64,000 nucleotides of DNA from Octopus vulgaris (lineage: Eukaryota): positions 63,178,001 through 63,242,000 of the forward strand of contig OX597819.1 of the NCBI GenBank assembly GCA_951406725.2, in the 5' to 3' direction. The notes under the pieces were generated by a model, which was not told the origin of the DNA, did no database searches, and worked only from the letters and a program-made list of their open reading frames with translations. This document shows, in pieces, positions 2,949 to 57,509 of this stretch (positions are counted from its first letter, which is position 1; each line of letters begins with the position of its first letter). A program made the position numbers and the translations under genes.

Positions 2949-4528
2949 GATATATATACATATATATTTGTGTGTGTGTGTTGCATACATATACACGCTA
3001 CGTGCTTTGCCTGCATATACATAATTATATGTACACACACATATATATATATATTTGTGCGTTTTGTGTGTGTGTGTGAGTGTGAAGCTACATAATATAG
3101 TGTTTTAAATTCATGATGCCTGAGAGACAAGATACTCTCAGTTTGAATGCGTTTAATCACAGACCTGCTTAATAAGCGCTACAGCCTTGCGTTTAAACAG
3201 TAACATTACAACCGTCGTCACAATCATCATCATCATCATCATCATCAACATCATCGTCGTCATCATCATCAACATGAACAACAACGACGACGACAACAGC
3301 AACAACAGTAAGGACAGTAACAAGAATGAAATCAATAGCAACAACATGGCGGCCACGATCGCAACCAGTAACCTCATTTATTCACCACTACCACGACATG
3401 CGACGAACGTACCTCACCCATCTACAAGTTTTATCCCTCTCTACTAACATAACTATCACAAACATACAATACTGGACACCGTGAGAAGAACAAGAGAACA
3501 TATTTGAAGACCTGAAGTTCGTGCGCGCACATAAGAAAACAAGTGAAAAATAAAATAGAAAAACAAAAGACATCACACAAAAACTTTCTGAAACTCATGA
3601 ATATGCAAATTTCCTCAATGCTTTATGCAAATTAGCGTCCATCCTATTTTTTCCTTTCAAAAATTTTGCTCATTTATTTATTGTTTCGTGTTTATCATTA
3701 TCCTTATTATTTTCTTCAATTTTATATCATTATCGTTGAAATTATTTTTATTTATTTATTTATTCTCCATCTTTTTGGGGTTTTTGATTACTTCATTTTC
3801 TATATTCCTCCACCAACACCAACTTTCATACATTTATAAATGGACTTTCGCGAAAATAAGAAATTTTTGAAAATTTGAAAATTAAAAAAAACAAAAACAA
3901 TACATACCCTCTCTCTTCTCTCCCTAAAAATGGAACAGGACAAAAAAGAAAAAAACAACACGCACACACACACGCACACATACACACACAGACACACACA
4001 CATAGACACACATACCAATGAAAACAGAAGCAAATGCCGAAAAGCATTTTATCATAAGATTGACTGAATAATAATAATTAATCTACTACACTTCTTCCTC
4101 CTCCTCCTCCTCCTCCTCCTCCTACTACTACTACTACTACTACTACATCACGCCACCAGTATACAATATAAAGAAGGTATCTGAAGAATATTTGGAGAAA
4201 TGAAGTGAAAGTTGAAAGAACGGTCAATTGAATGAAGTCTTTTGTCGTCCTTCATTTTTTCTTCAATGTTTTATGCGTTCTACGTTAAAAAAATCGCTTT
4301 GGTCAACTTCCCTTTCTGTATTAGCAGAATCGTTTGTTTGCCTGAACGCAAATACCTGCGCTAATTGTTCCGGCTCTTTAAATTGTGTGTTCAAATTCCA
4401 CCGAGAACAAAATTGTGTCTTTCATTCTTTCGGGATAGACAAATTAATGTGACCAGTCGGATTCTCAGGTTTTAATGGGATCAACTAACATTATCTTCTG
4501 TATACCATGTGTTGAGTAGATAGTGTTG

Positions 4529-4941
4529 GTTGAAAGAAACAGTATGGAAGACGCGGCTGAAAGAGATTGTGACGGGTACCTTCGTATCTGGCCAGGATTT
4601 GGTCAACTTTTTTAGTTACCAACTCAGCAGTAAGATCAGGCTGGAGAAGAGGTACCTGTCATGTGAAAAATTCAGAAAAAGGTGGAAGCTTGTGGAGAGA
4701 AAGCTGGGAGTAACTGGCACCAAGTGAACGGAGCCACGGAAAGAAAGCAAAGGTTCTACACTGGTGTAGGGTGCCTTTCCTTCGTGTTAAACATTGCTTT
4801 TAGCAATGTATTCATTTTAAATCTCATCTGTATGATAATCATTGTCAATTTTTAATCGTTTAAAGCTACTCACCCTTTTTATGTTTGTCTGTCCTTGTCC
4901 GTCCCCTCTATGTATTGTCTTATGGCAAATATTATGAAATA
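4529..4941 (+). mobile_element. 5'-truncated L1/Tx1-like LINE 3' end
   Basis: Flanked by 15-bp direct repeat gagtagatagtgttg (4514-4528, 4942-4956); ORF 4530-4727 (KETVWKTRLK...FVSGQDLVNFF...KIRLEKRYLS..KFRKRW) resembles an L1/Tx1 ORF2 C-terminus; clade assigned by recall only. Confidence 0.65.
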
Positions 4942-5303
4942 GAGTAGATAGTGTTGTTTGATGCAATATGACTAAATCAGAGCAGTGCATTGACAGTACC
5001 CTAAGAACTTAGGACAGTTGTTATTTCTTTTGCTTCACAAACTTCTGAATTCAAATTTCGTCGAAGTTAAATTTCATTTATATCCCTCCACAGTAGTTAA
5101 AAAAAAGTACCAATAAAATATTGATATCAAAACAATCGACTAATCTTCTCCCACAAATTCCGGATCATGTGACTCGGTTAGAAACAATCATATTTATTGT
5201 TGTGATTGGCGGCAGTGAATGTTATGTTTGAAGCAGATATGATCTTTAAATATAGCTAGTACTGTCGAGATCAAGCAGAATACACACACACACACACATA
5301 CTC

Positions 5304-5341
<38 letters not shown>

Positions 5342-5358
5342 GCATGTATGTACGCATG

Positions 5359-5507
<149 letters not shown>

Positions 5508-5987
5508 GAGACTGCTATATTGATTGAAGTGAACATTAAACTGTCTGTATACTGTCCTGCATATACCTGTGTTTGTCCTCGAAAACTAATTTTGATGCGA
5601 CGAAAAACGACCAACGTACACATAAAAAAAACTATATAAATCCCCAAAACACTATATGTTGTGTTCCATAAATTAGATGTTATATGTTATAGGCTGAGAA
5701 TGTTGTACCGCACTAACTCATACGGACTGACCCTAGACTCCTGGAATGTCGATCCAAGTAGTATCTATACCGAGAATAATGTCGAATGTTATATGTAAAA
5801 TTGTTGACTGTTCAAGTAGTATGTGTTAACTGTCTATGTGATTCCATCTTATACATTATGGGTTGTGATTATTGTCTGATTATTTATGTAACCATGGGAA
5901 TGTGTCTGACTGCCCGACTGCCACTAGACACTAATGCGCCCTTGACATATATTGACGTATGTAAATACGAAAATATAGCTATATACA

Positions 5988-6500
5988 TCTATTATATAAA
6001 ATCGTTCTGACTGTCTGTGTGTGTGTCTTCTAGGATCTCAGGCATCCTCCATCCGATTGCGCTCAAATTTGATATGTAGATACCGACGGTGTCAGGGCGT
6101 GTATAAGTCTTGAAAAAATTACAAAAATCGATTCCAGGTGAGAATGCAATCAATAAAGTCGTCTTTGTCCTGCTTTTCTGCCGTCAACCTGTACATAACT
6201 GCACCTTCCATTTTTGGTTGTTTTTGTACTGCTTAAAGCACGTTTCTTTCCTGCCAAGCTTACTATTTAAACCATCTTTGTGTTCTTCCAGTCAACAGGC
6301 TTATTATTACTGGTACTTTAAACTCTTCGGTTGCATATTTGTGTGAATAAAATCGTATTTCTTTGGAATAGAAAGAAGTCTATCTTTATTTCTTCTTTTG
6401 CTGGTGTCTCAAATTTAGGTTAAATCAGTGTTTCTAGGAGGGGAGGTCTATGGGACGGTCGGACAAGTTGTTTTGAGAAAATTTGGTTTAAATGTTTGAC
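5988..6500 (+). mobile_element. Possible non-autonomous Helitron/Helentron-like element, 3' limit uncertain
   Basis: a|TCTATTATATAAAA start followed by ctgtctgtgtg microsatellite and ccgattgcgctcaaatttgatatg; no 3' CTRR terminus identified. Confidence 0.35.
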
Positions 6501-7772
6501 AACTCAGCGCCGTCCATTGGACTGCGGGGGTGGACGTTTTGCTCGTGCATATATAAATATGACTTCATAGGTGTGGGTAAGGAAGAGTGAGATATATCAT
6601 GAGGTGCGATTATACGCCTGGAAAATAAATGTTTGTATGGGGAAGCATACATGTAAAAATATAAATGCACATGCATAAAAATATATCTATGCGCATGTTA
6701 AGATACCTTCCATGTGAATGTAGGATAACACATATAAATGCACATAAATATAAGTGTATAAATATAAGCATATGTATTTGTAGTTGTATGTATATAAATG
6801 CTTGTATTAGTATACGCCTGTTTGCGCATGCTAAAAACCGCTAAATATATGTGTGAGTTTGTGCCTACGTATACTTGTGTATGTGTACTCCTGTCTACCA
6901 AACCAGCGCTAAGTAAGCTGATCCAGTCATCTGTAACCGGCTGAAGAATGGCTCCACAACGGGGAGCAAGATATTAATTTATTTGCCTCTAATACGACCA
7001 TCTTGATTGTTTGAGAATGCCCTTTCCTTGACGACACGTGTGAGTGTGTATATATGTGTGTATACGTATACGTCTATATATGTGTTCATGTCAAAAAGTG
7101 TATAGTTTTCCTTCGTTTTATCTCGCCAGGTTTATACTCCATCTCTTTCTGTAATTTATATTATGTATAAACAGTGAATTATAACCTCACCTATTGGTTA
7201 TAACCCCAAAATTATTCACAGAAAAGCAGAGAAAAATATTAACTCACAGAAGCACTGAAAAATATGTAATATACTAAAACAGAAGAATTAAAACAAGGCA
7301 TGCGGCTGAGAAGAATTTCGTGATGTGAAGAATCAAATGTGAAAAATCAAGTCGAAACGATGAAAATGCTCGGATCTTTGTGGTTACCAACACTGTATGT
7401 CGAAATCTTAAAAAAAAAAAATAATAATGTACCATATAGATGAAATTTTGGATCTAGTTTTTCTATGTGTTAGTATTTTTGCCTATTTTTTTCATTTTTG
7501 GGACACATTGACTTACATAGCGGGATTTATGATTTCACTAGGTTAATTCTATTCATAAAACTTTAAATTAGTAGTATTTCTAACAAAAACCGTTAGCTTC
7601 ATATTTCAACTGCTTAACTGAAATTTAGCCCACGTAACAGGAACTGAGAGGGATATCGCGAAACAGAGAATCTGTGGGTGATACAGATAATATGATATTA
7701 TTTTTGAATTCTGCATACAAAAACATATAAGATACAGGTATTCTTTTCCTTGGGACAAATTCTTTGTCCCAA

Positions 7773-8568
7773 GCGAGCAAACTAAATATTTAAAAGCTTC
7801 AAGCAAACCAACAGGAATTGCTAGAAATAACAGTCAAAACGTGAGGCACAGGCAGTGAACCGCAACACAGCGTGCGGTTGCCATGGTAACAAGCTGCTAA
7901 TGCCACGCTGTTTGTTGATTCGCTAAAATTCTTTAATTTACGAGATAAAGTAATTGGTTGATCGTAATCAAAATTCAGAGATGTACCGATACACCAAAAG
8001 TGAAAGCAATCTGAAAAAAATTGAAAGGGGCTCATTTTGCTAATGAAGAAGACTAGTTCCGTAATTGTTGACGCTGGATCCGAATTTGTTAATCATTTAT
8101 TCCAAAAAATTTTGCGAAAATGTTGCAGGTGTTCAAAGTTTGATAATTTTCGGAATTTTCAGCTAATCAGAAAACAGCGCGTTGGCTATCTCTTCCAACA
8201 TCTGTCACTGTAGCGAGAAAGTGAGGGTGGAGGGCACTGGCATGTCAAAACATTAAACTAGCTGCAACTAAATTAAATATTTAAAAGCTACGAGCAAACC
8301 GACAGGAGTTACTAGAAATAACAGTCAAAACAATAACAGCAAAATAAACAGTAAAAAACAAAAAAAAAACATTCGCGAGCAAATTAAATATTTAAAAACT
8401 GCGAGCAAACCAACAGGAGTTGCTAGAAATAACAGTCAAAACGTTAAAATATACACCAGTAAAGTAAACAGTGAAAACAGTGAAAAACATTAAAACATTC
8501 GCGAGCAAATTAAATATTTAAAAGCTACAAGCAAACCAACAGGAATTGCTAGAAATAACAGTCAAAAC
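7773..8568 (+). repeat. Four copies of a ~68-bp unit
   Basis: gcgagcaaattaaatatttaaaagct...agcaaaccaacaggagttgctagaaataacagtcaaaac at ~7773, ~8267, ~8375, ~8500. Confidence 0.85.
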
Positions 8569-9369
8569 ATTGCTTAAAACAGACGTTTATACGTTGAAAA
8601 CCTCAAGAAAGTAAGTTTGCAATACACTCTAGGAATATAAGTAATCTTTTTCATATCTCGTTCTCCACATAAATTCACAAAGAGAAGCGTGAATCATGGA
8701 ACCGTGTGTCCTGTGCCGGCGTTTGTCTCCACGCTGTAAAGATGCCCAGGTACTCACAATTTGTTGGTTACATTTAATTTGGTGGTTACACGACTTGTGC
8801 GCATGCACAGCATCTTTGGTTACTATAGAAACAGAGTTCTTCGCAATCAGCTATGGAACACATATTAAGCTTCTTTGTTTACAATGCTAACAGAACTTCA
8901 TCCTGATGTGTAAAATACTCGCTTCTGATTGGCTAAAATACCTAAATTTTCAAAATTTAAAGGCTAGTAACTTTTCCATTATGAATTTATAGGGAAAATG
9001 AATTTCATTTTAATAATTAGCATACAAAACTTAATCCATATACCAAATTTGAAAACAAATGGAACAAAATTGTAATCAGTGACCATAACCACTAAGATCC
9101 AAGTGGACTATTCGGCATACATCTTGAAATATAACAACGTCCAAATTATATATATATAATTATATCTTTTGCCAAATGAACACACGCACTGTATATTCAT
9201 CGTTTACTATTTTATTACTGATGTTTCGTCACTCATCACGTGTATGCTCCTGTTCCACTTAGTTCATTACGTTCTTCTAAGAGCAGTAATAAACGGGTGA
9301 ATAACGATTATATAGTGCCTGTGTTTATTTGGCAAAAAGAAACAAAAAAAAAACAAAGAAAATCTGACC

Positions 9370-11059: not shown

Positions 11060-12173
11060 TAAATAATGGCCATTTCCCTTTATTGGATTAAATTTGGCTT
11101 ACAGCTGTTTCCAGTAGTCATTATAGGTTCCCTTGAGACAGGGTTACTCATTTGGACTATAGTTTATTTGAGAAAAGTTGAACGACCTAAAAAGCATGAA
11201 TGCTAGTTTCAGCAGAGCCAATGTTGATGGACTACGACCGGGACCTTGCTCCTCTATGCTTAGCTCTCTGCGGGCAATAAAGGAATAAATATTATTAGCT
11301 TGGTTTGCAGCGCTTCTGAATTATTTTTCCGGATTGATAATCCCTCACAAATAGTTACATAGGAATTATTTACCAGAGAATTCTGACGAAGGTATGTAAA
11401 CATAAACTTCGACGTCACTATCAAAGTTTTCCTTGAGAACTTGAAAATCATGTATTCCTGTACTCCGTTAAATATATTGTGTAATCCTTCAGTGCAATGG
11501 TAAATTGATTTTGTATATAACTTGAGATAAATGCAAAAATTAACAAGCACATACACTTACGCATATGTATGTGTGATTTTGCAGCAATGCATATGCATCT
11601 TTATAAGCATGTGTCTGTATGTGTGCATGTGAGCGTAAAATCCTGCGTATGAAAATTCAATTTCTTACTTCAGATTTACGTAACAACCTAAAATATACTG
11701 AAAAATGACAATAAATATTTTGTTACAGTGTATTAATAATTTTGTTATGAAAGAATTTTTAAACTCGGATAGGGAACGTTAAACGAATTGGAGTATTGAT
11801 ACAAAAGAAATATATGTGAATACAGAAAGACAATACTAAAAGAGAATAAAAATAACAGAATAGAAAATAAAATGAATAACGTTTAATATAGGAAAATTTT
11901 GAACTGAAGAAGTATATAAAGATATAAAAAAAACATTTGATGATGAAAATATGAAAATGATAAGGAGATATAGTGTATGAAAGGAAAGGAAGAGTGAATT
12001 GAGACCGGAGAAATTTTAAGAATTTGAAGGGAAAAAAATATACGTTAGAAAGAAATGTAAGTAAAATGAAGAATAAATTGTTATAAAGAATATAAATGAA
12101 ATATTTCAGTCATAGTTGCCGAAACGGAAAAATAAAGAAAATAATCACGGTGCTGATGATGATGACGATGACT

Positions 12174-12224
<51 letters not shown>

Positions 12225-12592
12225 TGAGAATGAATAATTTAGAAAATTGTGACAAAAACAAAACAAGACAAAATATTGTAATGAAGATATTGGAATGAAA
12301 TATGAGACAGCAAATGTCAGACAGATGAAACGATGTGAATCACAGATGGAAAATTAAGTGAAAATGACAGGTGGAATTAGAGAAGAGATAGAGAAAAAGA
12401 AGAGAAAGACGAGAGAAAAAAAAAGAACTGGAAGAATTAGAAGAATGGGGAATAAAATAAGTGGGTTAGAAGAAAGTAATATAGAAGGCAGGGAGAAGAA
12501 AAATATGAACAACAAGAGAAGAAGTTTAATAAATGTCTAACAGCATAATATTACTATCCGGTCCTGATCGTAATGGGAAAAGTCTATCTATA

Positions 12593-12669
<77 letters not shown>

Positions 12670-12864
12670 GTATGTCTGTCCATCTATCTATATATATGTA
12701 TGGTGATGCAAACAGGAACAATAGAACTTAAAATATGAGTATATCTATCTATATCTCTATTAATATTTGGTAGAAATAACACGTTCACTCAAGTGCCGAA
12801 ATATAAGCATCAACTCACGAAACTATCAGCCCTTGAACCACTCTCATGCTTTTGCTTAATATCC

Positions 12865-13230
12865 GAGTGGCTGTGTGGTAAGTAGCTTGCATAACAACCA
12901 CATATTTCCGGGTTCAGGCCCACTGCGTGGCACCTTGGTCAAGTGTCTTCTACTATAGCTTCGAGCCAACCAAAGCCTTGTGAGTGGATTTGGTAGACGG
13001 AAACTCAAAAGAAGCCCGTTTAATATATGTATATGTATATATGTGTGTGCGTGTTTGTGTGTCTGTGTTTGTTCCCCCAACATCACTTGACAACCGATGC
13101 TGGTGTGTTTACGTCCCCGTAACAAGGCTTACAAATAACTAGGCTTACAAAGAATAAGTCCTGGGGTCGATTTGCTCGACTAAAGGCGGGGCTCCAGCAT
13201 GGCCTCAGTCAAATGACTGAAACAAATGAA
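12865..13230 (+). mobile_element. SINE family A
   Basis: Colinear with 9370-9855 apart from an internal deletion near 13122. Confidence 0.9.
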
Positions 13231-13248
13231 ATATATATATATATAAAA

Positions 13249-13529
13249 TTAAAATTATAATTCAGGGTATCTAAGAGATAACTCTACGCTGGAAATAGCA
13301 GCCAAAAATTGACTCTAAAACCACACTAAAAGTTTATACAGCACCAGGAGACAAAGAGACAAAATAAACTAGCAAAAAAATTACTATATAATTTTTTTTT
13401 GCTAGTTTGTTTTGTCTCTTTGTCTTCTCTCCTCGTGCTGTTCGAACTTTTAATGTTGTTTTAGAGTCAGGTTTTGGCTGCTATTTCCAGCCTGGTGGTA
13501 TCTCTTAGATACCCCAAATTATAATTTAA
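13249..13529. repeat. Imperfect palindrome, arms ~135 bp
   Basis: gggtatctaagagata...gctggaaatagcagccaaaa...gactctaaaac mirrored by gttttagagtc...ttttggctgctatttccagc...tatctcttagataccc; centre ~13386. Confidence 0.9.
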
Positions 13530-13625
13530 TAATAATTATTACCTTTGGAGGTTTTTTTATTCCGATGCTGGCTATCTGATAAGATCGGTATTTAAACAAC
13601 GATCTTATCCTTATTTATATAAATT

Positions 13626-13697
<72 letters not shown>

Positions 13698-13796
13698 AAG
13701 TTAATCCAAAAATGAAAACACAAATTGAAAGAACAACACGAGGACGTAGAACAAGTATAGTGTTATTGGACGCTCGGAAAGGAAAGATATACATAT

Positions 13797-15018
13797 TGTT
13801 ACGGTTTAGCTGGTGCATTTCCCGGTGACCCACATTGGAATTATGGTTCCGGTATGTCTAGTAGAAAAGTGACAGTCTTTTGTTTAATGGAGGACTAATG
13901 GGTTTTGGAAGGACCTGTGACCTCGTGCGGTTGATAAGAGGGTCAGTGAGAATGTGAAAGAGGAGGACAGATTAAGGGAATCTGAGAGCAAATGGAGAGG
14001 GTATTGACAGTAAGAGAGGACAGGCAGAGAGTATGGTAGAGCTGTCTGAGAGAGATAGAGTATAAGACTAAGGGACAGATAGAGAGGGTAAGGGACAGTA
14101 GGCGATAGCGATAGAGTAAGAGCAGAGGGCAAATAGAAAGGATAAGCAGTAAGGGACAGATTGAGGATATAGATAGAGTATAAGGACCAGGGCAGTTAGA
14201 GAGGGTGTGAGCGGTACAGAGGGAGATGAGGGAGTGGAAAAAGGACAGAGACGAAGTGAGGTCTGGGCAGTCGTTGAGCGGTCGTCGAAGAACACAGACG
14301 GATCTTGCAGTCGCTGGCCGGTCCTCGAAGAAGACAGTCGGATTCTGGAGGTCAGAGCGAGTAGATGGAATCTTAGAAGCGTTGGAATTTTAGGAGCAAG
14401 CTGGGATGCGAGAAAGCTTGGCGGCACAGAAGGGATATGTACAGAGGATTTAGCAGTATTGAGAGGAATGGGACACTGGCGATTCAATTAGGAATTGAGG
14501 TATGCGTTTGTGCATTGATACGTGTCACGATGTATTGAACAGTGGAAAGAACAGTCAAGGACTTGCCGATATGTCGATTATCGAGTTGTGGTATTTATGT
14601 TCAGAATTGAGTAAAGGACTTGTTGATGTGACTTTATCTGTGATGTTTAGAAAGAGACTTTAAAGAACTGTTGTCTTCGGACGTGAACTTTGAATTGTAC
14701 TCTTGAATTGCTGTTGTATTATGCTTTGATCTGTTGTATGATGTATTGAGTAGTCACGTGCATGTCTTCCTTTAAATGTCTGCCTTAAATGTATTTGATG
14801 TGTAGCAATTGATTGTCATATAAACTGTTGTTGAATATAAGCCAGTGTCTCTGTTGCCTCTGTGCCTCTTTTGGGTGTCTCTCTGGGTTGTGCCTCTGTA
14901 TCTCTTTCGGTTGTGGTTGTTGTTGTATCTCTCCTCTCTCCTCTTTGGGTTCCGTGGCGAACTTGTGAGCCGTTCGGGGCGGGCGACGACGGTGGGCGAT
15001 TCCGTCCGTTTCGTAACA
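13797..15018 (-). mobile_element. Solo LTR (Gypsy-like), 1222 bp
   Basis: Termini TGTTACG...CGTAACA (7-bp inverted) with 4-bp TSD ATAT at 13793-13796 and 15019-15022; strand inferred weakly from ATTAAA near the minus-strand 3' end. Confidence 0.75.
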
Positions 15019-15465
15019 ATATATATACATACATACATACAAAATTAAGAGGAATGTATGTAACACAATTTTTGATCTTTGGGTTTTTTAAATATGCTAA
15101 GCCACTGGTTTTATTTAATTAATATCAATTTCTACCATTGTTATTTAATTTTATATGTATATATTATATACATAATCCATAATTATAACGATAGAGAAAT
15201 TGGCGATGGGTACATCCTCAGAATATATTACCTTTTTTTTACAATTTCATACAGCATATTTTTATGGTTACGACGACCTACATATGTTTCCACTGCAAGA
15301 ACTATGCTTGGAAGTAAGCTTATTAACTACCCATCGAAAGACCTTCAACGAAACTGCACAGAACATATTTGCTCGGTTGCATGTACAACTCCTCATAATC
15401 TATGTAGTAGAAACACCTGTAGGTTGTCATAACCATAAAAACATCCTCTTTTTCTCTTTTTCTCT

Positions 15466-15886
15466 TTTTTTTACTCTTTTTTTTTGTTTCAGTCATTTGA
15501 CTGCGGCCATGCTGGAGCACCGCCTTTAGTCGAGCAAATCGACCCAAGGACTTATTCTTTGTAAGCCCAGTACTTATTCTATCGGTCTCTTCTGCCGAAC
15601 CGCTAAGTGACGGGGACATAAACACACCAGCATCGGTTGTCAAGCAATGCTAGGGGAACAAACGCAGACACACAAACACACACACACACATACACATATA
15701 TATATATATATATACATATATACGACAGGCTTCTTTCAGTTTCTGTCTACCAAATCCACTCACAAGGCATTGGTCGGCCCGGGGCTATAGCAGAAGACAC
15801 TTGCCCAAGATGCCACGCAGTGGGACTGAACCCGGAACCATGTGGTTGGTTAGCAAGCTACTTACCACACATCCACTCCTGCGCCT
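15466..15886 (-). mobile_element. SINE family A, full length
   Basis: Reverse complement of the 9370 element, including the internal microsatellite. Confidence 0.9.
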
Positions 15887-16342
15887 GTATGCTTTGTAAA
15901 ATGAAAGGAAATAAATTTTGGGGATGTACCAGTCTCCATATTCTCTATGTTTATATGTATTGCAAATATACATTCCATATAATATTAACATCTAGTTAAG
16001 CGAACACGGAATTATCCATACAAGGATTTACTGTTTGATTGACAACTCTTTGTAGGCATAGACGTTAAGTACTAATTAATGAGGTTAGCCATAACATACA
16101 ATATAATTGAGTGCTATTACTCTATCCATCCGGATATTATACATACTGAAACACACACATACACACACGCACACACACACACACATATATATACACACAC
16201 ATGTTTTTCTCTCGTTCCTCCACACAAAGACACACCATCTCTCTCCTTATCTATCTTTCCCTCTTTTTTAAATACATCAAGAAATGAAAGAGATAACCTA
16301 AAAGAGAGAGAAAGTGTGTGTGCGTGTGTGACACATAATGTG

Positions 16343-16393
<51 letters not shown>

Positions 16394-16468
16394 TTGAGTT
16401 GTTGGGTATCGCACGAGTGGGATTATATAAGAAAAAAGGTTTGAAAATGCAATTTAAACGATGTTTAT

Positions 16469-16513
16469 TTACTTAACCGGTTTCACTCTTTGGTAAAAGA
16501 TTGTCAAAAGTAA
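16469..16513 (-). ncRNA. Putative minimal type I hammerhead ribozyme (mirror copy)
   Basis: Reverse complement of 17037-17081. Confidence 0.65.
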
Positions 16514-17036
16514 CATTAAAAGTATCATTGAATAATATGGGTTCAGAAAAGTTTTTTACATAATTGTCACATTGAATATTATGCATTCAAAAAAATTTTT
16601 TACAGTAATTGTCACATTGGATATTATGAATTCAAAAATGTTTTTTTATACAAAATTGTCACATTACATGTATAAATATAGTGTTTGGTAACAGAGAAGT
16701 TCAATAGTGTGATGAGAATATTTGGAAAAATTGGCAGAAAAGGATAAAACAAATATATTATTGGAAATTTTGTTGCGTTAATTATTGGTTGTCGCAAATT
16801 GTCACATTACATGTATATATATACAGTCTTTGGTATATATATACAATCTTTTGACAGCAAAATTTAAAATGGATTTTTTATACATCTCAGAATATTTTAA
16901 GTTGAAGGCGAGAATATGTTGTTACTGACCTGTTGTGACAATTATGTAAAAAAATTTTTTGAATGCATAATATTCAATGTGACAATTATGTAAAAAAACT
17001 TTTCTGAACCCATATTATTCAATGATACTTTTAATG

Positions 17037-17081
17037 TTACTTTTGACAATCTTTTACCAAAGAGTGAAACCGGTTAAGTAA
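17037..17081 (+). ncRNA. Putative minimal type I hammerhead ribozyme, U3-A8 core
   Basis: ttactt-TTGACAA-tcttt/tacc/aaaga-gt-GAAA-ccgg-TT-aagtaa: 6-bp stem I, 5-bp stem II, palindromic stem III, GUU site, followed by AATAAA. Confidence 0.65.
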
Positions 17082-17118
17082 ATAAACATCGTTTAAATTG
17101 CATTTTCAAACCTTTTTT

Positions 17119-17247
<129 letters not shown>

Positions 17248-17397
17248 GGATTTTAAATTTAAGTGAAATTTTTCAAACTTGTTGATATATTGACATGCAT
17301 TTTCACGATGAATTTGATGTTGAGGTTTACTCATTCCAGAAATAATTTTTAAATGTTACAAAAGTTTAAAATTTGATAATTTTTACATTATCATATA

Positions 17398-17540
17398 GGC
17401 GCAGGTATAACTGTGTGATAAGAAGCTTGTTTCTGGACTACTTAGTTCCTGGTTCAGTCCCACTGGATGGCACATTGGGCCAGTGTCATCTACTGTAGCC
17501 TCGGGCTGGCCACAGACTTGTGAGTAGATTTCGTAGACAT
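17398..17540 (+). mobile_element. SINE family A head, diverged
   Basis: ggcgcaggtataactgtgtg...ggttcagtcccactg...tagcctcgggc. Confidence 0.7.
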
Positions 17541-17810
17541 TTCTTGAGGAAATGATGCAATAATGGTTTTGTGGAATGTTGATTAAGTATTTAAATGTGT
17601 AATTTTGTTGTTCTCTTGAGATGCATAGACAATCTTTACCCCTGTTTAAGAGGTGATCACGTTTTTTATTTTGGGTTTAGATGTCGCTTCTCAAAGACAC
17701 GAGATTTGGTCAGGGAAAAACTTGCTCCCCATGCTCGTACCATTATATATATATATTGAAATTATATATATTTATTAAAATTAAAATTAAAATTTTATTA
17801 TTAGAATTAT

Positions 17811-17864
<54 letters not shown>

Positions 17865-18239
17865 TATAAGAATTACACCAGGATGTTAAAAGACACCTAC
17901 ATTGCTAGAGATAATAGCTAAAATGCGCTAAAGGTTTAGTTAACGCACATGAATAAGAACACATACACTTACAGGGACCATTATCAGTTAAGCCAGATCG
18001 GTGTTCGGCTTTTTCCAGACCTGTTTCTCAATTAGTATATATATTTTCGTCATCCAAATTAATCGCCGGCATTTTTCGGACCATTGTGGTCCTTTTAAAT
18101 GTATATTCTTTATTTATGTACATTAACTACAGTATTAGATCATTTTAGGTCTTATTTCGAGCAAAGTTGGTGTTTTTAACACCCCAGTCACATTTAGCGA
18201 CAATTATAATTCTCCTTTTTGGTGAAACATCGAAACCTA

Positions 18240-18312
<73 letters not shown>

Positions 18313-18338: not shown

Positions 18339-19000
18339 TAGAATCCATATAAGTGGATTCTCTATGTATTTAAATATACACTATATCGTATGACTAATAT
18401 ATAGTGTTTTTGACTAAAATATTTTTACGCGTTGGACCACTGGAAATGTAAATTTTGATTGAATGTTTTTAACTTTAATTAAATTCCATTTCCCTTTGAT
18501 ATGATTGAATTCTTGGATAATTTTTGGATAATTTTCGGTTGGCGGTTTATTGTAGTCAACGAATGGACTGCGTCTGCGCAGAAAATTTGAAAAGTTAGGT
18601 CGTATGTACACGAGACAGGTAACCTATTTTGTCTCGTGTAGATAGGTTGGTTCCTGCTGACGAAAATCAGACCTTGTGAGCTCTCCATGACTCGCTAAAA
18701 GAAGATTAGAAACCAATTGGTCCAGGAATCTAGACGGTAAATGTTTTTAATTTCCAAATTTATTTCTGTCGAATCTTATCCCCGATTTTTGGTGGTTATA
18801 GAACTTAGCTGTTCTTTCTAGCGCGTAGAATCTCTATAAGTGGATTCTCTATGTATTTAAATATACACTATATTGTATGACTAATATATAGTTTTTTTAA
18901 CTAAAATTATTTTACGCGTTGGACCACTGGAAATGTAAATTTTGATTGAATGTTTTTAACTTTAATTAAATTCTATTTCCCTTTGATATGATTGAATTCT
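18339..19000 (+). repeat. Partial tandem, 487-bp period (175-bp direct repeats 18339-18513 and 18826-19000)
   Basis: tagaatc...aagtggattctctatgtatttaaatatacac...gatatgattgaattct repeated with few mismatches; bounded by microsatellites. Confidence 0.92.
18649..18730 (+). ncRNA. Putative type I hammerhead ribozyme
   Basis: ggttcctg-CTGACGA-aaatc...gatta-GAAA-CCAATTGG-TC-caggaatc: canonical core, 8-bp stem I (one GU), palindromic stem III, GUC site at 18720-18722. Confidence 0.8.
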
Positions 19001-28433: not shown

Positions 28434-29057
28434 TATACATATACGTATATATATATATATATTAATAAATGAGTCAGTAATTCAAACGATTCAAACAAGC
28501 ACTTTATAATATTGTTCAGCAACCATAAACTATTCTTACTCACATTCTCTCCCTCTTCTCTCATTTTCTCTCTCTCTCTCTCTCACTCTCTATTACCCAT
28601 TGTGTGTATATATATATTTACACACAAACACGGACACTCATACACACGCGGGCACACACAAACACACGAACACACAAGCACACACATATCTGTATGTTTG
28701 TATTAGAATTTCTTTGTGTGTTAGAACAGAAAATAACCACACACTAGAACGAAGAACTCAATACTACAATTTAATACACTGTTATATATTCATTTATTAA
28801 AGGTAGACAAAGGAACTATTGCTTTCCTTATCGATCTGTATATCCATCCTTCAGTGTTTGCATTTCTATGTATGTATTTATGATTGAGAACAAATCCGTT
28901 AGTGAGGCCCTGGTTTAGGAATACAAGTGCTTTTGAAGAATATGAATTCACGTCTTAGCCAATATTGTTCTGAGACACAACCTATTAGGGTTAATTTGCA
29001 TGGGATACACTGGTATATATAATTATTTGTTTATTGCACATAAGTCGTTAAATTAAG

Positions 29058-29258
29058 AGGGGACAAACAAGGACAGACAAAGGGATTAAGTCGAATACAT
29101 CGATCAATCCCAGTGCGTAACTGGTATTTATTTAATCGACCCCGAAAGGATGAAAGGCAAAGTTGACCTCAGCAGGACTTGAACTCAGAACGTAACCACA
29201 GACGAAATACCGCTACGCATTTCGCCCGCCGTGCTAACGATTCTGCCAGATCGCTGCC
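29058..29258 (-). mobile_element. SINE family B
   Basis: ggacaaacaaggacagacaaa...ccccgaaaggatgaaaggcaaag...ttgaactcagaacgtaa. Confidence 0.85.
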
Positions 29259-29326
29259 CTACACTAGTATCTGTAATAAAAAAATACTCCATACATCTTT
29301 TCCTCCACTTATTTAATGAACTGTCC

Positions 29327-29934: not shown

Positions 29935-30639
29935 AATATTAAAATTACTAAGTCTCTCTAAAGGAGATTACATACATCCGCTTTGACAAACGCATATAAG
30001 AGGTAACAAACAACACAACACAAATGGGGACAGGTAGCATAAATAATTAAATGAATAAACGATTTGTCACGCAAATGTACATATACATACGTTGGGCCCA
30101 ATTCATTCAATCGTGTTCGTGCATCTGAACATCTTAGTTTCAACCATGGGCAACATTTGTTTGAGGATCTGCAGCTCTTTTGCCCCCACTAGTAAATATT
30201 GCATTTCAATACCACCGCTGTTTATCCAGGTAAAACCACTGAATTGGATCGATACCCGCTGGTAATGAATTGTTGCATGCGTTGCTGCTGGCATGCATTA
30301 AACGTGAACCTGTACCGTAAGACAAATGATGCGATTCTATAACATTTCTGCTAATACACTGCTCTTAATTTGTAATTTCTGTTTAGCTCGAAATGATAAT
30401 TCACATCAAATTAGAGTGAAGAGCGCAAGAACAAACAAACAGCGCATTCTGTACAACTGTGTGCCAATTCATTCCTTGTTCATACATACATGCGTAAAAT
30501 ACATACACTCACACATATATTCAGACACAAACACATATTTATATACATTTACCTACACACACGCGCGCACTCACACACGCGCGCACATACACACGCAAGC
30601 ACACACACACGCAAGCACACGCGCATTCTTCGGTTGTGT

Positions 30640-30912
30640 GTCAAGAAGGCTTCCAATGGTCTCATGCAAGCAAGACGCAACGCCACAACCCCGGTTGAGC
30701 ACATTTGGTCTTTGAAAGAAAGCGTCACACAGTACAACATAAAGTAGAAGATCCTGAAGTTGTGTAAACCGCACTTCAATAGCAGTAGGAGATGCAAATT
30801 GTGCCTGGCTGACAAGTGAGCGATTTTAAAAGGTACCCAACACCCGGATGTTTACCTGAGTAGCAGGAGTGAAGTGCTTAAACCTTGTCCACATGAAAGG
30901 AACTACATTCTA
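30640..30912 (+). pseudogene. Penelope-like (Naiad-like) GIY-YIG endonuclease C-terminus, decayed
   Basis: Translates HIWSLKESVTQYNIK*KILKLCKPHFNSSRRCKLCLADK* and then LSSRSEVLKPCPH, matching the HIW / CxxC / LNxRxE..CxH pattern of PLE endonucleases. Confidence 0.75.
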
Positions 30913-31372
30913 TCGTACCTCCGGCCTACCATGACTGCAACCACAGGTTCTCGACCTCGGCCTTTCACCGATACCCTCGAACCCAGCAAAGAATTTGACC
31001 AGAGCATACACCAATGTACTCATGTACGAACGCCCCAGCAAGGCTAACATAACCCCCTCCTTATGGCCTTTACCAATACAGAAAGAAAACGGACTAAGGA
31101 ACATAGTTATATATACTCTGGATAATATTAAACGTATGTCACCATTACACATATCACATACCCCAACCCTACAGGGGCACCATACTTAATAACGCAGGAA
31201 ACATTTCAAAATAATTTTTACCGGCTTTACAGGCATATAACTAAGGCATATAACTCCTGACCTAATACCCTGCCCTTTTTCGTTTCACCATCTTTTTCAC
31301 AACAACCACAAACCAGATGTGTCGTTTTACCTGCGACAATAGAGAGCACTCGCCATATTCCTTTCCATGTCG

Positions 31373-31462
31373 GCTAACTCTGATGAGCGTTATGTTACAT
31401 AATCCGATCGTTACATAACACTCCGTTGTATTCTTAGCGCGAAACCGATTGGTAAGATCAGT
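31373..31462 (+). ncRNA. Putative type I hammerhead ribozyme in the PLE 3' region
   Basis: CTGATGA (31380-31386), stem II gcgtta/tagcgc, GAAA (31441-31444), CCGATTGG, GUA site 31452-31454; stem I partly decayed. Confidence 0.7.
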
Positions 31463-31569
31463 GTGTGATGGCTCTATATTAGAGTACATTTCGGGTAGTA
31501 TACCCAATCTATTGACAGATATACGAGTGCATCCTTTCCCTGACTTATGGACTCTTAGTCGACTCGCGA

Positions 31570-31624
<55 letters not shown>

Positions 31625-34649: not shown

Positions 34650-35062
34650 TATTTACTGCCCACACGGGGCTACACAGAGAGGAGACAAACAAGGAGAGAC
34701 AAACGGATTAAGTCGATTATATCGATCCCATTGCGTAACAGGTACGTATTTAATCGACCCCGAAAGGATGAAAGGCAAAGTCGACTTCGGCGGAATTTGA
34801 ACTTAAAACGTGACGGCAGACGAAATACCTATTTCTTTACTACCCACAAGGGGCTAAACTCAGAGACGACAAACAAGGACAGACAAACGGATTAAGTCGA
34901 TTACATCGACCCCAGTGCGTAACTGGTACTTATTTAATCGCCCCCGAGAGCATGAAAGGCAAAGTCGACCTCGGCGGAATTTGAACTCAGAACGTAACGG
35001 CAGACGAAATACCGCTAAGCATTTCGCCCGGCGTGCTAACGTTTCTGCCAGCTTGCCGCCTT
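34650..35062 (-). mobile_element. SINE family B dimer
   Basis: Two tandem units joined at gacgaaatacc|tatttcttt (~34830). Confidence 0.9.
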
Positions 35063-40401: not shown

Positions 40402-40723
40402 TGGCTCGTTTTAACCCACTTTACACGACATGATTTGAAAATAGAAAAATATCAAAGTAGACGTTATTGTGGAGAAACATATCGAACACAAAACAGAATA
40501 TAGATTGTTTAACACCAAAATTGATCTATATATATTATTAGCTACCTCAATTAAAATAGGAGCACATTTGAGGAAAATTTCCTGGGTAAAAAGAAGTACT
40601 CGTTACCTACGTTCCAAACACTCTCAACTATAATAACTACAACTATACTCACGAATTTTTACTTTTAAAGATGATGCAGCAGTACAAAATGATGATTCAA
40701 TATTGGTAATATGAGGTTTTTGA

Positions 40724-41120
40724 AGGCGCGAAGCTGGCAGAAACGTTAGCCTGCCGGGCGAAATACTTAGCAGTATTTCGTCTGCCGTTACGTTCTGAGT
40801 TCAAATTCCGCCGAGGTCGACTTTGCATTTCATCCTTTCGGGGTCGATAAATTAAGTACCAGTTACGCACTGTGGTCGATATAATCGACTTAATCCGTCT
40901 GTCTGTCCTTGTTTGTCTCCTCTGTGTGTAGCCCCTTGTGGGCAGTAAAGAAATAGGTATTTCGTCTGCCGCTACGTTCTGAGTTCAAATTCCGCCGAGA
41001 TCGACTTTGCATTTCATCCTTTCGGGGTCGATAAATTAAGTACCAGTTGCATATTGGGATCGATCCAGTCAACTGACCCCCATCCCTAAAATTTCGGGGC
41101 TTGTGCCTACAGTAGAAAAT
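40724..41120 (+). mobile_element. SINE family B dimer (tail 1, then tail 2)
   Basis: Junction aaagaaata|ggtatttcgtctgcc at ~40955. Confidence 0.9.
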
Positions 41121-48944: not shown

Positions 48945-49025
48945 ATTATAGCCTCGGGCCGACCAAAGACTTGTGAGTGGATTTGGTAGACGGAAACCGA
49001 AAGAAGCCCATCGTATATATATGTA

Positions 49026-49088
<63 letters not shown>

Positions 49089-49278
49089 ATGTTTGTCCCC
49101 CCAACATCGCTTGACAACTGATCCTGGTGTGTTTACATCCCCATAACTTAGCGGTTCGGCAAAAGGGATAATGGAATAAGTACTAGACTTACAAAGAATC
49201 AGTCCTGGGGTCGATTTGCTCCACTAAAGGCGGTTCTCCAGCATGGCCACAGTCACATGAATGAAACAAGTAAAGAGT
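48945..49278 (+). mobile_element. SINE family A, 5'-truncated
   Basis: tatagcctcgggccgaccaaag...gaaacaagtaaagagta. Confidence 0.9.
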
Positions 49279-49395
49279 ATCTCTCTCTCTCTCTTTCTCA
49301 CTCACACACACACTCTCTCTATCTTTCTTTCTCACTCACACACACACACTCTCTCTCTCTCTTTCTCATTCACACACACACACACTCTCTCTCTC

Positions 49396-49441
<46 letters not shown>

Positions 49442-49745
49442 GAGAGAGAGAGAGTGTGTGTGTGTGAATGAGAAAGAAAGAGAGAGTGTGTGTGTGTGAG
49501 TGAGAAAGAAAGATAGAGAGGGTGTGTGTGTGAGTGAGAAGAGAGAGAGAGAGATACTCTTTACTTGTTTCATTCATGTGACTGTGGCCATGCTGGAGAA
49601 CCGCCTTTAGTGGAGCAAATCGACCCCAGGACTGATTCTTTGTAAGTCTAGTACTTATTCCATTATCCCTTTTGCCGAACCGCTAAGTTATGGGGATGTA
49701 AACACACCAGGATCAGTTGTCAAGCGATGTTGGGGGGACAAACAT

Positions 49746-49818
<73 letters not shown>

Positions 49819-49832
49819 TACATATATATACG

Positions 49833-51361: not shown

Positions 51362-51798
51362 AAATAAATAAAATATATGTATATATACATATATGTACAT
51401 ACTTACATCTACATGTATATATACATGCATATATATATATATATATGAGTACAGGACACCACAAATAAACGTAGAACACAACGAGAGACGGGAACATAAA
51501 ATCAAACAAGGAAACGGACTTTTTTTAAACAACGAAAAAACAGAGTACAGGACAAACAATACAAGGAAAATTCCCCTTCATCAGCAGTCCCTGGTTCGAC
51601 TCAAAGTGTGTTTCGAAGTGCTGTCCTTACCTTCGAAACACACTTTGAGTCGAACCAAGGACAGCTGATGAAGACGAATTTTCCTTGTATTGTTTGTCCT
51701 GTACTCTGGTTTTTCGTTGTTTAAAAAAGTCCGTTTCCTTGTTTGATTTTATGTTCTCGTCTCTCGTTGTTTTCTACGTTTATTTGTGGTGTCCTGTA

Positions 51799-52759: not shown

Positions 52760-52958
52760 CGGCGAGCTGGCTGGGCGAAATACTTAGCGTTATTTCGTCT
52801 GCCTTTACGTTCTGAGTTCAAATTCCACCGAGGTCTACTTTCCTGTCATCCTTTCGCGGTCGATTAAATAAGTACCAGTTACGCAATGGGGTCGATTTAA
52901 TCGACTTAATTCCTTTCTTTGTCCCTTTGTGTTTAGCCCCCTGTGGGCAATAAAGAAA
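52760..52958 (+). mobile_element. SINE family B with 13-bp TSD
   Basis: tatataattaagg at 52747-52759 and 52959-52971. Confidence 0.88.
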
Positions 52959-55024
52959 TATATAATTAAGGTTTATAAAGGCACTTACTGGACACAACGG
53001 TGCGTCTGCTCATGGGATTTAGTAACGTAAGGTTTTAAAATTTAGTAATTTATGAAATTTCAGTTAGATTATTTATTTATGATAAAGCTCCCTCAAGCGT
53101 ATTTTTTGAAAAGCGTTAGCAGTTACAAAAAGTTTCAATTGCTATTTCTCGTAAGATATTTAAGAAGATATGTCTGTCTCATGAAACCTCATTATATTTA
53201 AAACAGTATTTTATTATTCTTGAAAACCCCGTTTTTTTTAATGGTGTAGAGACAGCTGTAATTTATTAGATGAGTCATTTGTTCGTATAAAATAATAAAT
53301 TTGAATTGAATTCATGATTAAATTATTTGATTGTTCAATTTATTACTTTGGCTTCCATATCTAATTTATATTTATACATTTATAAACTATATGCTTATTT
53401 TATTTATTTATTTACGTATTTGTTATGAGCGATAATTCATATCATTGTTATTTATATAGGTAAAAAAAGAAGTAAATTCTTTTGATATTTTATATCCCTT
53501 TGGTGGTTATTTAACACTTAACTAAATTTTTATCTTTTGCATAAATCTGATTATTTACTTGTTACTTTTTAGTATTAGTAAATATAATTGTCGTGTATAG
53601 AATAATAAAGGATAATGGAAACTATTACAATTGACACATCTTTTAAAGTCATACCGATACCTCCAAAAAATGTATATATGAAGGAACTATTGATAAAATA
53701 ACGGACTTCCCTAATAGACTAAAGATGGAGACCTTTTTATTATGATAAATCCCAAATGGGTTCCACTAATAACAATATGGATAATAGCATTGATTTTATC
53801 TCTGGCTTATTTAAAACCAAGAAAACGCTATTACATAATAACTACTTAGAAATATTTGAACAAGAATTATGAACTACAATCAAAAACCTAAAATTCAAGA
53901 AACACCCACAGCGGAACAACCAACACCAATTGAAGCTAAAGAAAAATTACCCCATGAACTGAAAAATATAAAAGAAATTATTGTTAATCCAGATAAAACA
54001 AGAAACGTATGTAATATAGCTATGAATTTATTCTATAAATAGATATATAAAGAACTTACGTTGGACAGATAAACCTAGAGGCTAAAAAATTATGGAAAAT
54101 CATAATATAGATGATAAAAGAGAACCATTAATGCCTATTAGACTATGGGTAACAATTAAGGATCATCAATAGAATTTGCATGTAATTACATAGGTTAGAT
54201 AAATCTGATTTATGTAAACTCAGCAGGATAATTTTAGATAAATCTATACCGATCTTGAATTATAATATCAGACTACAATTATGATTAAACACCCAGAATG
54301 CTATTAAATGGTTCTCAAACATAATTAATAAATATAAACCTAAATAGATATTGATAATTCTTACGCTAGTATAAACCCATCTTGATATTATCCAAGATAC
54401 ATACACCTATTAGCATGAAAGAAATTAATGTAATTTTAACAGCCCGCAAATCAATTATATCATTCGATAATAAATTATGGGCAAGAAACGATACGCCTAG
54501 CTGTTTCGATATATGTATAGGGGCGCCAGATTCTGCGTAAATAACTGACATACCTTGAGTATATTTATTGTCTAATAAACAAAATGAATTCCCAGAGCTC
54601 GTGGGGGGACTATATACAGATGATGCAATCTTTCTAGTTAAGAATACATCTAATAGACGTCTATAACTTATAAAGAAACGATTATTTAATTTTTTTTAAT
54701 CATTTAGACTATCTATAACTATAGAAAAAGAATATAATTGAATTAATTACTTAGATATGATTTGTAATTTATCATCTGGAATACATGAACCATATATTAA
54801 AGCAAATTATAAATTAAAACATATAAATCATTAAACAATTACCCACTTTCAATGAAAAAACATTAGTATATATTAGTAGTAAGAGAATTTCATTTTATTT
54901 TATAAAGGAGATATATTTAATAGACATAAAGGCCAATATCATTTGGGTTTAAGTAAAGCAGGTTATAAGAATAAATTACAATGCATTAAAGGTAATAATA
55001 TTATAAACACAATGAGTAAAATTG

Positions 55025-55063
<39 letters not shown>

Positions 55064-55085
55064 TTAATAATAATAATAATAATAA

Positions 55086-56269
55086 GCTACAATATTCTTA
55101 ACTGGACACGAAATGAACTGTCCAAAATAGATAGGAAAACAAGAAAAATACTGACAGGATCTAGGATGCATCACCCAAAATCTGACATAGAAAGACTATA
55201 TATACAACGTATAGAAGGTGGTAGAGGCCTTATACAGCTGGAAAACTACTATAAAATAACCACCATAGGACTGCAAAAATACCTACTTCAGAAGGAAGGA
55301 AAACTGATCCAGATAGCAGCAAAACACGAGCAAAACAAAAAACTGTTCTCAGTATTTAAGGAAGCTGACAAATACAAACAAGAAATCATACCACCTAATA
55401 AACACGAAGAAGAAGAAGAAGATGATGAAGAAACAACAAAAGCTATAAAACAAATGAAATCCAAACTAAAAATAGAACAGCAACGAACCATGATAAAACG
55501 ATGGCAAGAAAAGCCCCTTCATGGTAAATACTGCACTAAACTAAACGCAAAAGAAATAGACAAAGAAAGATCCCAGCAATGGTTGAGAAGCTCAGGACTC
55601 AAAGCAGAAACAGAGGGATTTTTAATTGCAGCACAAGACCAAAGCCTCCCCACCAGAAATTACCAAAAACATGTAATGAAAAGAAATATTACAAGTAACT
55701 GCAGAATATGTGGAGATGGACAAGAAACAATAAATCATATTATCTCTAGCTGCCCAGTCCTGGCTAAGAAGGAATATATTCACAGACATGACAGAGTTGG
55801 AACCTACATACACTGGAAGCTATGCCAACATTATGGAATAACAACAGAAAAAAGATGGTATAGGCACACACCAGAAAAGGTTACAGAAAACGAGAAAGCA
55901 ACCATACTCTGGGATATGCCGATACACACAGATAGAGAAATTAAGGCCAACAGACCAGATATAGTTGTCAGAGATCATGAAGAAAAAAAATGCTTTCTAA
56001 TTGATGTATCAATACCGGCAGATGACAACGTGTCTCTAAAAGAAATGGAGAAACTCTCAAAATACAAAGACCTGGAAATAGAGGTAACTAGAATGTGGAA
56101 TCTGAAAACAGAAACAATTCCTATCATAGTAGGTGCATTAGGCATGATAAAAAAATATTCAGACAAATACATAACAAAAACACCAGGACTTACAAACACA
56201 TATAACATACAGAAAATTGCACTACTAGGCACTGCACACATCCTACGCAGAGCACTTTCCATACAATAA
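55086..56269 (+). CDS. 5'-truncated R4/Dong-like non-LTR retrotransposon ORF (post-RT region, CCHC zinc knuckle, restriction-like endonuclease)
   Basis: Uninterrupted frame with RLY..R..GGRGL, CRICGDGQETINHIISSC, RHD and NRPDIVV...LIDVSIP...EKLSKY; no true start (the poly-Ile lead is the TAA tract); 3' UTR to ~56364. Confidence 0.9.
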
Positions 56270-56364
56270 CCATCAGAGCATCACAACAAATCACAGCACA
56301 TACCCAAGGCACACAGAGCTGCGCTCGGTAGTGAAGTGAAAGCACGCTATAAAAATAAAAACTG

Positions 56365-56495
<131 letters not shown>

Positions 56496-57509
56496 TAAAA
56501 ATGTTAATACTTACAATCACTGATATATAAATAAACCGAATAAAATTAAATATAATATCTACTTAAAGAATGAAAATAAATATACAAATTTTAGTGATTT
56601 TACTTATAATAAAGTAAATACTAAAAAGATAAAATGGCTTATAATACCATATGCCATATAAATAAAATATAATTTGGTGTAATTTATTTATAGACTAATT
56701 AATAAACATTCTAATATAAATAATAAATATGAAGTTATGAGCAATAAAAAATAAAGATAGATATGGCTTAATTCATAACTTATCTATTATTATAGATTCT
56801 ATAAATAATTAAAAAATGCATTATTTTAACTTAAATAGAAAATGTGCTAATAATAATTCCCCTAATACCAAACTTAATTTAGAAGATATTATTAGTAATA
56901 CTACTTGTTATTTCATTAATAAACAAAATATTTTTAATAACAATAGAAACTCAGTAACATATAAAACCTCCTCCTCCTCCTCAACTAATATAAATGGTAA
57001 TTCTTATAAAACGTGATTGTAAAAACAAAGATAGCTGTGCGGTTAAAAATTTTTGTAAAGTGAAAAATGTGGTATATCAATGTAAAGTTAGATTATATAT
57101 TTATGATAAAACTCGATCATATAAAGCGTCTGATGAAACGTCATTATATTTAAGGCGATATTTTATTGTTCTTGAAAACCCTGTCTTTTTAATGGAGTAA
57201 AAACAGCTGTAATTTACTAGATATGTCATTTGTATAAAATAATAAAATTGAATTGATTTATCATTTAATAATTAAATTATTTAAATGTTCCATTTATCAT
57301 TTTGGTTTCCATTTCTAATTTATATTTACACATTGATAAACCGTATGTTTATTTTATTTCTTTATTTACGTATTTGTTATGAGTGATAATTCATAACAAT
57401 ATCATTTATATAGGTAAAAAAACAGTAAATTCTTTGGATATTTAATATCCCTTAGGCAGTTATTTAACACCTAACTGAGTTTTTATCTTACGTATATACA
57501 TATAATTAT

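Follow-up and report, generated by a model that had tools for sequence, protein, structure and literature searches.

A decayed, probably Hydra-clade Penelope-like element with a type I hammerhead motif next to a (TA)n tract

A nuclease remnant and a hammerhead motif on one strand

The window, by which we mean the whole 64-kb stretch of DNA analysed, is AT-rich and microsatellite-rich animal DNA. On its plus strand, at 30667-30918, lies the C-terminal half of a GIY-YIG endonuclease of the Hydra type of Penelope-like elements (PLEs), broken by two stops. The frame that opens at 30625 has 105 positions, and the stops fall at codons 41 and 65 (30745 and 30817). Most tblastn matches start at 30664-30679 and end at 30912-30936, which sets the limits of firm homology at about 30667 and 30918. 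Since the starts cluster in this way, the half that carries the GIY...YIG motif is missing from the copy. An earlier note had begun the remnant at 30640; that position holds only as an outer bound. A single tblastn match that would have extended the nuclease to 30445 was rejected because it passes through the microsatellite.

Table 1. Coordinates of features at the 30.6 kb element and the 487-bp unit
Feature	Position	Strand	Basis
(CA)/(CG)-rich microsatellite, 5' flank of truncated copy	30500-30625		sequence, repeat scan
Possible degraded 5' edge of insertion, homology uncertain	30640-30666	+	few tblastn starts; contig depth 0 in 3 of 4 runs at 30626-30657
CxxC motif	30793-30804	+	frame translation, alignment
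CxH motif	30886-30894	+	frame translation, alignment
3' spacer between nuclease and ribozyme	30919-31364	+	all depth bins covered in 4 of 4 runs
Type I hammerhead motif	31365-31472	+	core, stem III, descriptor scan
3' element tail	31520-31570	+	likeness by eye to 5' end of Hydra-1_Obim consensus; contig loose ends
(TA)27, likely insertion target	31571-31624		repeat scan
487-bp non-coding unit, then a second copy of its first 175 bp differing at 8 sites	18339-19000	+	between microsatellites
Hammerhead of 487-bp unit	18650-18729	+	descriptor scan, folding

A search of 1.84 billion representative proteins returned 1092 relatives of the remnant at E<=0.001, with a best value of 5.7e-15, and the translation matched PLE endonucleases, as the earlier note had proposed. 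The CxxC..E..CxH pattern was found in 140 of the 150 listed relatives, four of these 150 reached the YxDD motif of a reverse transcriptase (RT), and the long protein matches carried the ADKT motif and the CxC linker. Alignment with 13 relatives demonstrated that W28, C57, C60, L78 and CxH are kept in the remnant, and that the conserved E and N of the nuclease read D and S. Among listed relatives with both GIY...YIG halves, which the 30.6 kb copy itself does not have, at least two cysteines lay between the halves in 1 of 35, a count that bears on a CCHH insert. Neither an RT nor a GIY...YIG motif is attached to the 30.6 kb copy, so its clade membership rests on 84 residues together with the architecture. 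Pfam assigned no family to the remnant and gave sub-threshold GIY-YIG matches in 3 of 12 homologs, with nothing stronger. A word-index search of longer proteins with the remnant yielded 21 candidates, none of which scored, and a cluster look-up gave eight proteins, none with a name. The nuclease tree was built from 82 columns without an outgroup, and its bootstrap support was unsettled.

About 465 nt behind the nuclease end, on the same strand, stands the hammerhead motif, which confirms the physical link between the two that had been noticed previously. The motif consists of the core at 31380-31386, the G10.1-C11.1 pair at 31387/31440, GAA at 31441-31443 and a near-palindromic stem III at 31444-31453, and cleavage is predicted after 31454. 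Core positions C3-A9, G12-A14, A15.1-U16.1 and H17, along with G10.1-C11.1, are all present. Thus the core and the G-C pair of the earlier description stand, and helix I holds just two contiguous pairs, followed by a mismatch and a distal extension; contigs of the family suggest a longer distal stem I. The core halves are separated by 54 nt (31387-31440), within which a 6-bp helix II may form. The fold constrained to a hammerhead lies 14.1 kcal/mol above the free minimum, against 2.7 for a second motif at 18657.

Our hammerhead descriptor, which was composed after both of these sites had been seen, matched only 18657 and 31380 on the two strands of the window, and a scan that demanded three contiguous stem I pairs skipped the 31380 site. 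The descriptor matched 1 of 2000 dinucleotide shuffles of 30625-31575; even with its post hoc origin, the 31380 hammerhead is more than a chance occurrence. Rfam gave no match in 31300-31560. Over the whole window, no hammerhead was among the 150 listed of 455 Rfam matches, nearly all of which were microRNA-family models lying over simple or inverted repeats. Judged by its sequence and modelled fold, the 30.6 kb copy is likely inert.

The tail downstream of the hammerhead resembles the 5' end of Hydra-1_Obim by eye, as would a short terminal repeat like the 53-nt repeat described below. Loose contig ends behind 31558 and 31565 continue into (CA)/(TA), the (TA)27 tract begins 117 nt past the predicted cleavage site, and the element ends at about 31570. 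The (TA)n tract that had been reported to follow the hammerhead is therefore real, and it lies farther downstream than the segment then described. The 5' flank of the copy is (CA)-rich, its 3' flank is (TA)27, and a target duplication could not be made out. A look-alike of the GCTC...GAG hairpin at 31471 was given no weight because most contigs of the family differ there. Soon after the (TA)27 tract, a dispersed repeat at 31715-31952 matches 1067-1313 on the opposite strand (71% over 261 nt).

Family copies and related loci

The stretch 30625-31572 was present wholly or partly in 9 of 24 listed sequencing runs, from 5 studies and 4 organisms, with no RNA run among those holding it. Contigs from four of the nine runs were compared with it. 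Each run contributed 665-991 contig pieces, mostly less than 90% alike to the 30.6 kb element, and their summed depth peaked over the ribozyme and tail, which indicates a 3'-biased multi-copy family that ends in microsatellites. Summed depth does not equal copy number, but its course in run X1 fits many 5'-truncated copies: values of 1120-9168 across the nuclease from 30690 onward gave way to about 250 within the spacer, then climbed to 12135-18297 at the ribozyme core and in part of the tail. A single X1 record, at a depth of 65, was identical across 30830-31531. Among the contigs listed for the four runs, none spans the whole 30.6-31.6 kb stretch and none is a full-length member of the family.

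At the second stop, as at the two codons where E and N have decayed, most paralogous contigs differ from the 30.6 kb copy; these changes therefore look like decay of this one copy. The long loop seems to be a trait shared across the family, since depth in the bin over loop II is largely preserved relative to the adjoining bins; by our reading of the variants (40 of 305 rows), two majority letters in the loop II contigs would improve an inner hairpin. Near-identical pieces, for example one with 3 differences in 182 nt, occur in three of the four organisms (B, C and D), which suggests that the insertion is shared and older than their split.

Whether relatives of the nuclease carry a hammerhead had been set as a check on the proposed link. 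Metagenome contigs scanned with the homolog P0101 gave 46 loci, and the remnant itself matched 37. A locus was eligible if it extended to the end of the nuclease with 300 nt or more of sequence following, which left 24 and dropped 22. In 17 of the 24, the 800 nt behind the nuclease contained a hammerhead on the same strand, at a distance of 114-271 nt, and the dropped loci supplied 3 more, for a range of 112-271 nt over all 20. A relaxed scan recovered 1 of the 7 eligible loci that gave no match. About 11 of the 20 hammerheads look by eye like one family, so the 20 matches are not independent. Locus L001 carries an open frame of 719 codons that shares 37% identity with the remnant across 84 aa; a hammerhead follows 251 nt after this frame, and downstream of the ribozyme comes a terminal direct repeat of 53 nt. 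The check thus gave a positive answer, including one case behind an intact 719-aa ORF. In L003 the hammerhead is upstream, inside a short (TA)-flanked piece. Examined for the RT region that the 30.6 kb copy does not have, L003 showed RWK, DKT and the linker, and L001 showed RWK, DKS and the linker.

A GCTC-hairpin-GAGCA motif lies about 80-100 nt after the hammerhead start in L001, L005, L009, L019, L023, L035 and L037, that is, in 7 of the 17 loci with enough sequence, compared with 15 of 1700 shuffles. It can also be seen close to the 5' end in both L001 and L003, as well as in Hydra consensi from the literature. We regard it as a candidate terminal recognition structure.

The related loci also bear on the idea that two independent insertions, one bringing the nuclease remnant and the other the hammerhead, landed next to each other. 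The spacing in the 30.6 kb copy exceeds that of every relative found, and the drop of X1 depth within the spacer could be taken in the same sense. The spacer (30919-31364), however, is part of the family: every bin of it was covered in 4 of 4 runs, and joints connect nuclease positions to positions near the ribozyme, such as 30752 to 31295 in 4 of 4 runs. Depth that rises toward the 3' end is expected from 5' truncation, and a second, unrelated unit in the window, at 58649-59307, runs in the same order from remnant to hammerhead to (TA)n. We therefore consider two separate insertions extremely unlikely, and treat the locus as a single element.

The 487-bp unit and long domain II

The second descriptor match, at 18657, belongs to the 487-bp unit, which is 1.36 unit lengths long and is flanked by TA-rich microsatellites. 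Its longest stop-free stretches are 35 codons on the plus strand and 71 on the minus strand, and a tblastn-type protein comparison of the window detected no PLE protein trace in it. The hammerhead is well formed, with a palindromic stem III and a perfect proximal stem I, although it has an A10.1-A11.1 mismatch; 45 nt containing an inner hairpin separate its core halves. This locus (18339-19000) does not form a tandem array in which two or more successive units each carry a hammerhead. A perfect 10-bp inverted repeat lies just upstream of the hammerhead, at 18608-18639 (+). Like non-LTR retrozymes (PMC7229834), the unit is non-coding, carries a type I hammerhead and exceeds one unit in length; unlike the typical retrozyme monomer of about 300 bp, it measures 487 bp with one hammerhead in its 1.36 units.

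Compared with 30625-31575, the unit gave a sole notable match, 12/13 nt spanning GAAA and stem III. No alignment was obtained for stems I and II, for loop II or for either flank, shuffled sequences scoring as high in 283/500 cases upstream, 441/500 over loop II and 102/500 downstream. The earlier note had likened the two hammerheads (placing this one at 18649): the likeness persists in the core and stem III and in the length of loop II (54 and 45 nt), and is lost in the sequence of loop II. It had also suggested that the unit derives from this kind of PLE, which was not established, as alignment ends with the 13-nt core. Direct descent from the 30.6-31.6 kb family would account for the 12/13 match and for a weak 15/20 motif downstream, but it leaves the remaining stems, the loop and both flanks without alignment. 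Moreover, the 175-bp repeats of the unit differ at just 8 sites, so the unit looks younger than the decay required to erase homology to that family. Such descent is largely refuted and, in our view, quite unlikely. The unit is likely, as judged from its sequence, a separate non-autonomous, retrozyme-like unit, whose kinship with the 30.6 kb element is distant at best.

A wider relationship deserves more weight, namely that some related Hydra-type family gave rise to the unit as a non-autonomous derivative, which PLE machinery copied over more than one unit length. A stem III that starts with ACC is common to the unit, the 31380 motif and Hydra-1_Obim; it was found in none of the 20 hammerheads from related loci and, by a count made by eye in supplementary file S2 of PMC8557442, in just the octopus row among 26 Hydra rows. 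Few stem III positions, on the other hand, are free once the core and the palindrome are fixed. When both strands of the window are searched, the 20-mer at 31531-31550 has one other match of at least 15/20; it lies at 18773, 51 nt past the cleavage site of the unit, and the 20-mer itself lies 77 nt past that of the 31380 motif. This match was equalled by 27 of 2000 shuffles when the query was limited to the 32-nt tail, but the 20-mer was chosen after the fact, and the figures are 93 of 1000 against the whole unit and the 102/500 given above for the unrestricted comparison. Long loop II in both hammerheads, the 1.36 unit lengths and the TA-rich flanks also favor such an origin. So does the precedent of Xenopus, in which retrozymes are reported to be homologous to PLE termini and 24 of 57 families match transposable elements, nearly all of them PLEs (10.64898/2026.07.22.740005). 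A PLE origin or PLE mobilisation of retrozyme-like units has already been proposed (PMC7229834; 10.64898/2026.07.22.740005). Against it stands the lack of a PLE protein trace in the unit. A 65% match of the unit to 53470-53607, the leader of a Hydra copy at 53.6 kb, was not accepted, as it reached just 13/300 shuffles in one of eight tests. By eye, the 3' end of Naiad_Obim in the PMC8557442 supplement bears no resemblance to the unit, and a look through that supplement for three hammerhead motifs of the window, each 11-12 nt long, gave no match, although its line breaks could mask them. Taken together, we find the arguments for and against a related Hydra-type parent about evenly balanced.

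A third hammerhead, at 59187, follows a second 5'-truncated Hydra-type nuclease remnant that lies between (TA) runs at 58649-59307 (+), its nuclease part at 58649-58905. The motif begins 280 nt behind that remnant and is followed by (TA)n. Its core carries a single change, stem I has 9 bp, stem III is palindromic, and the 58 nt between the core halves contain a 7-bp inner hairpin. The 3' regions of this remnant and of the 30.6 kb element could not be aligned with each other (224/300 shuffles as high). The three window hammerheads therefore have 54 (31380), 45 (18657) and 58 nt (59187) between core halves, compared with 12-29 nt in the 20 hammerheads of the related loci. Folding predicts an inner hairpin for the 18657 and 59187 motifs, and one is suggested for the family of the 31380 motif. 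The supplement of PMC8557442 lists long loop II variants for two spike-moss PLEs, which gives the trait a precedent. In the papers listed by a literature search, titles and the beginnings of abstracts yielded no report of a long or branched helix II in PLE hammerheads, though such a variant may already have been published. Tentatively, and with more doubt than confidence, we suggest that the hammerheads of Hydra-type PLEs in this lineage form a variant whose domain II is enlarged and branched, at 45-58 nt including an inner hairpin. Usual descriptors would be too short for this variant, represented within the 64 kb by three elements that do not align with one another, and the 487-bp unit would be a Hydra-derived retrozyme that keeps it, which would make a cephalopod-type pair of PLE and retrozyme.

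Other repeats share the window. A long, heavily decayed Hydra-type PLE occupies 53037-57509 (+), with RT at 54370-54978 and the linker and nuclease start at 57015-57089. Its direct repeats (53176-53554 and 57128-57509, 83% identical) start inside the nuclease frame, with a shorter 76% piece upstream, and the element may represent a family that lost the second half of the nuclease. CTGATGA-like sites in its 53.0 and 57.1 kb repeats were rejected as hammerheads, as they match neither descriptor. This Hydra copy is interrupted at 55085-56480 (+) by an open 394-aa 3' fragment of a non-LTR element that ends in (TAA)n; its zf-RVT match (E 1.4e-5) is below the cut-off, and we take the fragment to resemble Dong/R4-type elements. 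Long, near-perfect inverted repeats lie at 49013-49821 and 51560-51689, the first with 283-nt arms at 98% and the second a hairpin-like element. Copies of a SINE-like repeat, presumably of octopus type, are found at 29050-29260, 34650-35060, 40720-41075 and 52760-52950. Along with the similarity of the 30.6 kb element to Hydra-1_Obim, described below, they suggest that the DNA of the window is octopus-like.

Placement in the Hydra clade

Hydra elements were described as PLEs with a C-terminal endonuclease (EN+) by Craig et al. 2021 (PMC8557442). The same source gives as features of the clade CxxC and CxH around E and N, the absence of CCHH, canonical hammerheads and insertion at (TA)n, names the ADKT motif and the CxC linker as diagnostic, and in its supplement already includes Hydra-1_Obim from Octopus bimaculoides. 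The 30.6 kb copy has the CxxC/CxH nuclease end, a same-strand 3' type I hammerhead and (TA)n at the insertion, all of which it shares with Hydra-1_Obim, along with a stem III of the form ACC...GGT. The layout of nuclease, hammerhead and (TA)n is thus the published architecture of the Hydra clade and not a new link. In an ungapped comparison by eye, 29 of 67 residues of the remnant are identical to the Hydra-1_Obim protein, and both have a two-residue insert before the conserved N. This level of identity points to a sister family and not to the same family.

The two elements differ in other respects. The spacer between nuclease and hammerhead is about 465 nt in the 30.6 kb element and about 130 nt, by eye, in Hydra-1_Obim, and where the former has 54 nt between core halves, the latter has an 8-nt loop on a 7-bp stem. 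The 30.6 kb copy is also 5'-truncated and broken, unlike Hydra-1_Obim. Its loop II is longer than in the Hydra rows of the PMC8557442 supplement, and both its spacing and its core gap lie beyond those of all 20 related hammerheads, which speaks against a Hydra assignment. According to Cervera and de la Pena 2014 (PMC4209133), most genomic hammerhead motifs of metazoan PLEs are single and tied to truncated PLEs. The 31380 motif resembles those hammerheads in its type I core, its G10.1-C11.1 pair and a short palindromic helix III suited to dimers, and differs from them in that its core halves are much farther apart, probably with an inner hairpin in its family.

Protein homology, the hammerhead core, the multi-copy family, a common 3' end adjoining microsatellites and the same order of parts in relatives were all observed for the 30.6 kb element. 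We conclude with high confidence that 30640-31570 is a 5'-truncated, decayed copy of a Hydra-clade PLE, likely put into (TA)n by target-primed reverse transcription that stopped early. As inferred from PLE biology, the RT-endonuclease of an active parent would have nicked AT-rich DNA, in the manner of the Poseidon PLE (PMC11167929). The parent RNA would then have been copied from its 3' tail, with an early stop leaving about 0.9 kb. Tandem transcripts of the parent may have been cleaved by its hammerhead, which would probably have acted as a dimer paired through the near-palindromic stem III, as considered for metazoan PLEs (PMC4209133). Insertion by the Poseidon PLE has been reconstituted in vitro, and hammerhead cleavage was dispensable there (PMC11167929), so a role for the ribozyme of the 30.6 kb element is assigned here by inference.

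The 30.6 kb element is a real but ordinary fossil of a described clade and a new family member. It adds a further decayed family to that clade and confirms the published layout of nuclease, hammerhead and (TA)n. If the 487-bp unit had a Hydra parent, the case for a PLE origin of retrozymes, hitherto made with Xenopus sequences, would reach a mollusc-type genome. Should the long domain II prove conserved and functional, descriptors built for short loops would miss whole hammerhead families in such genomes, and the insert, if functional, would be a candidate for controlling cleavage or for binding the PLE protein.
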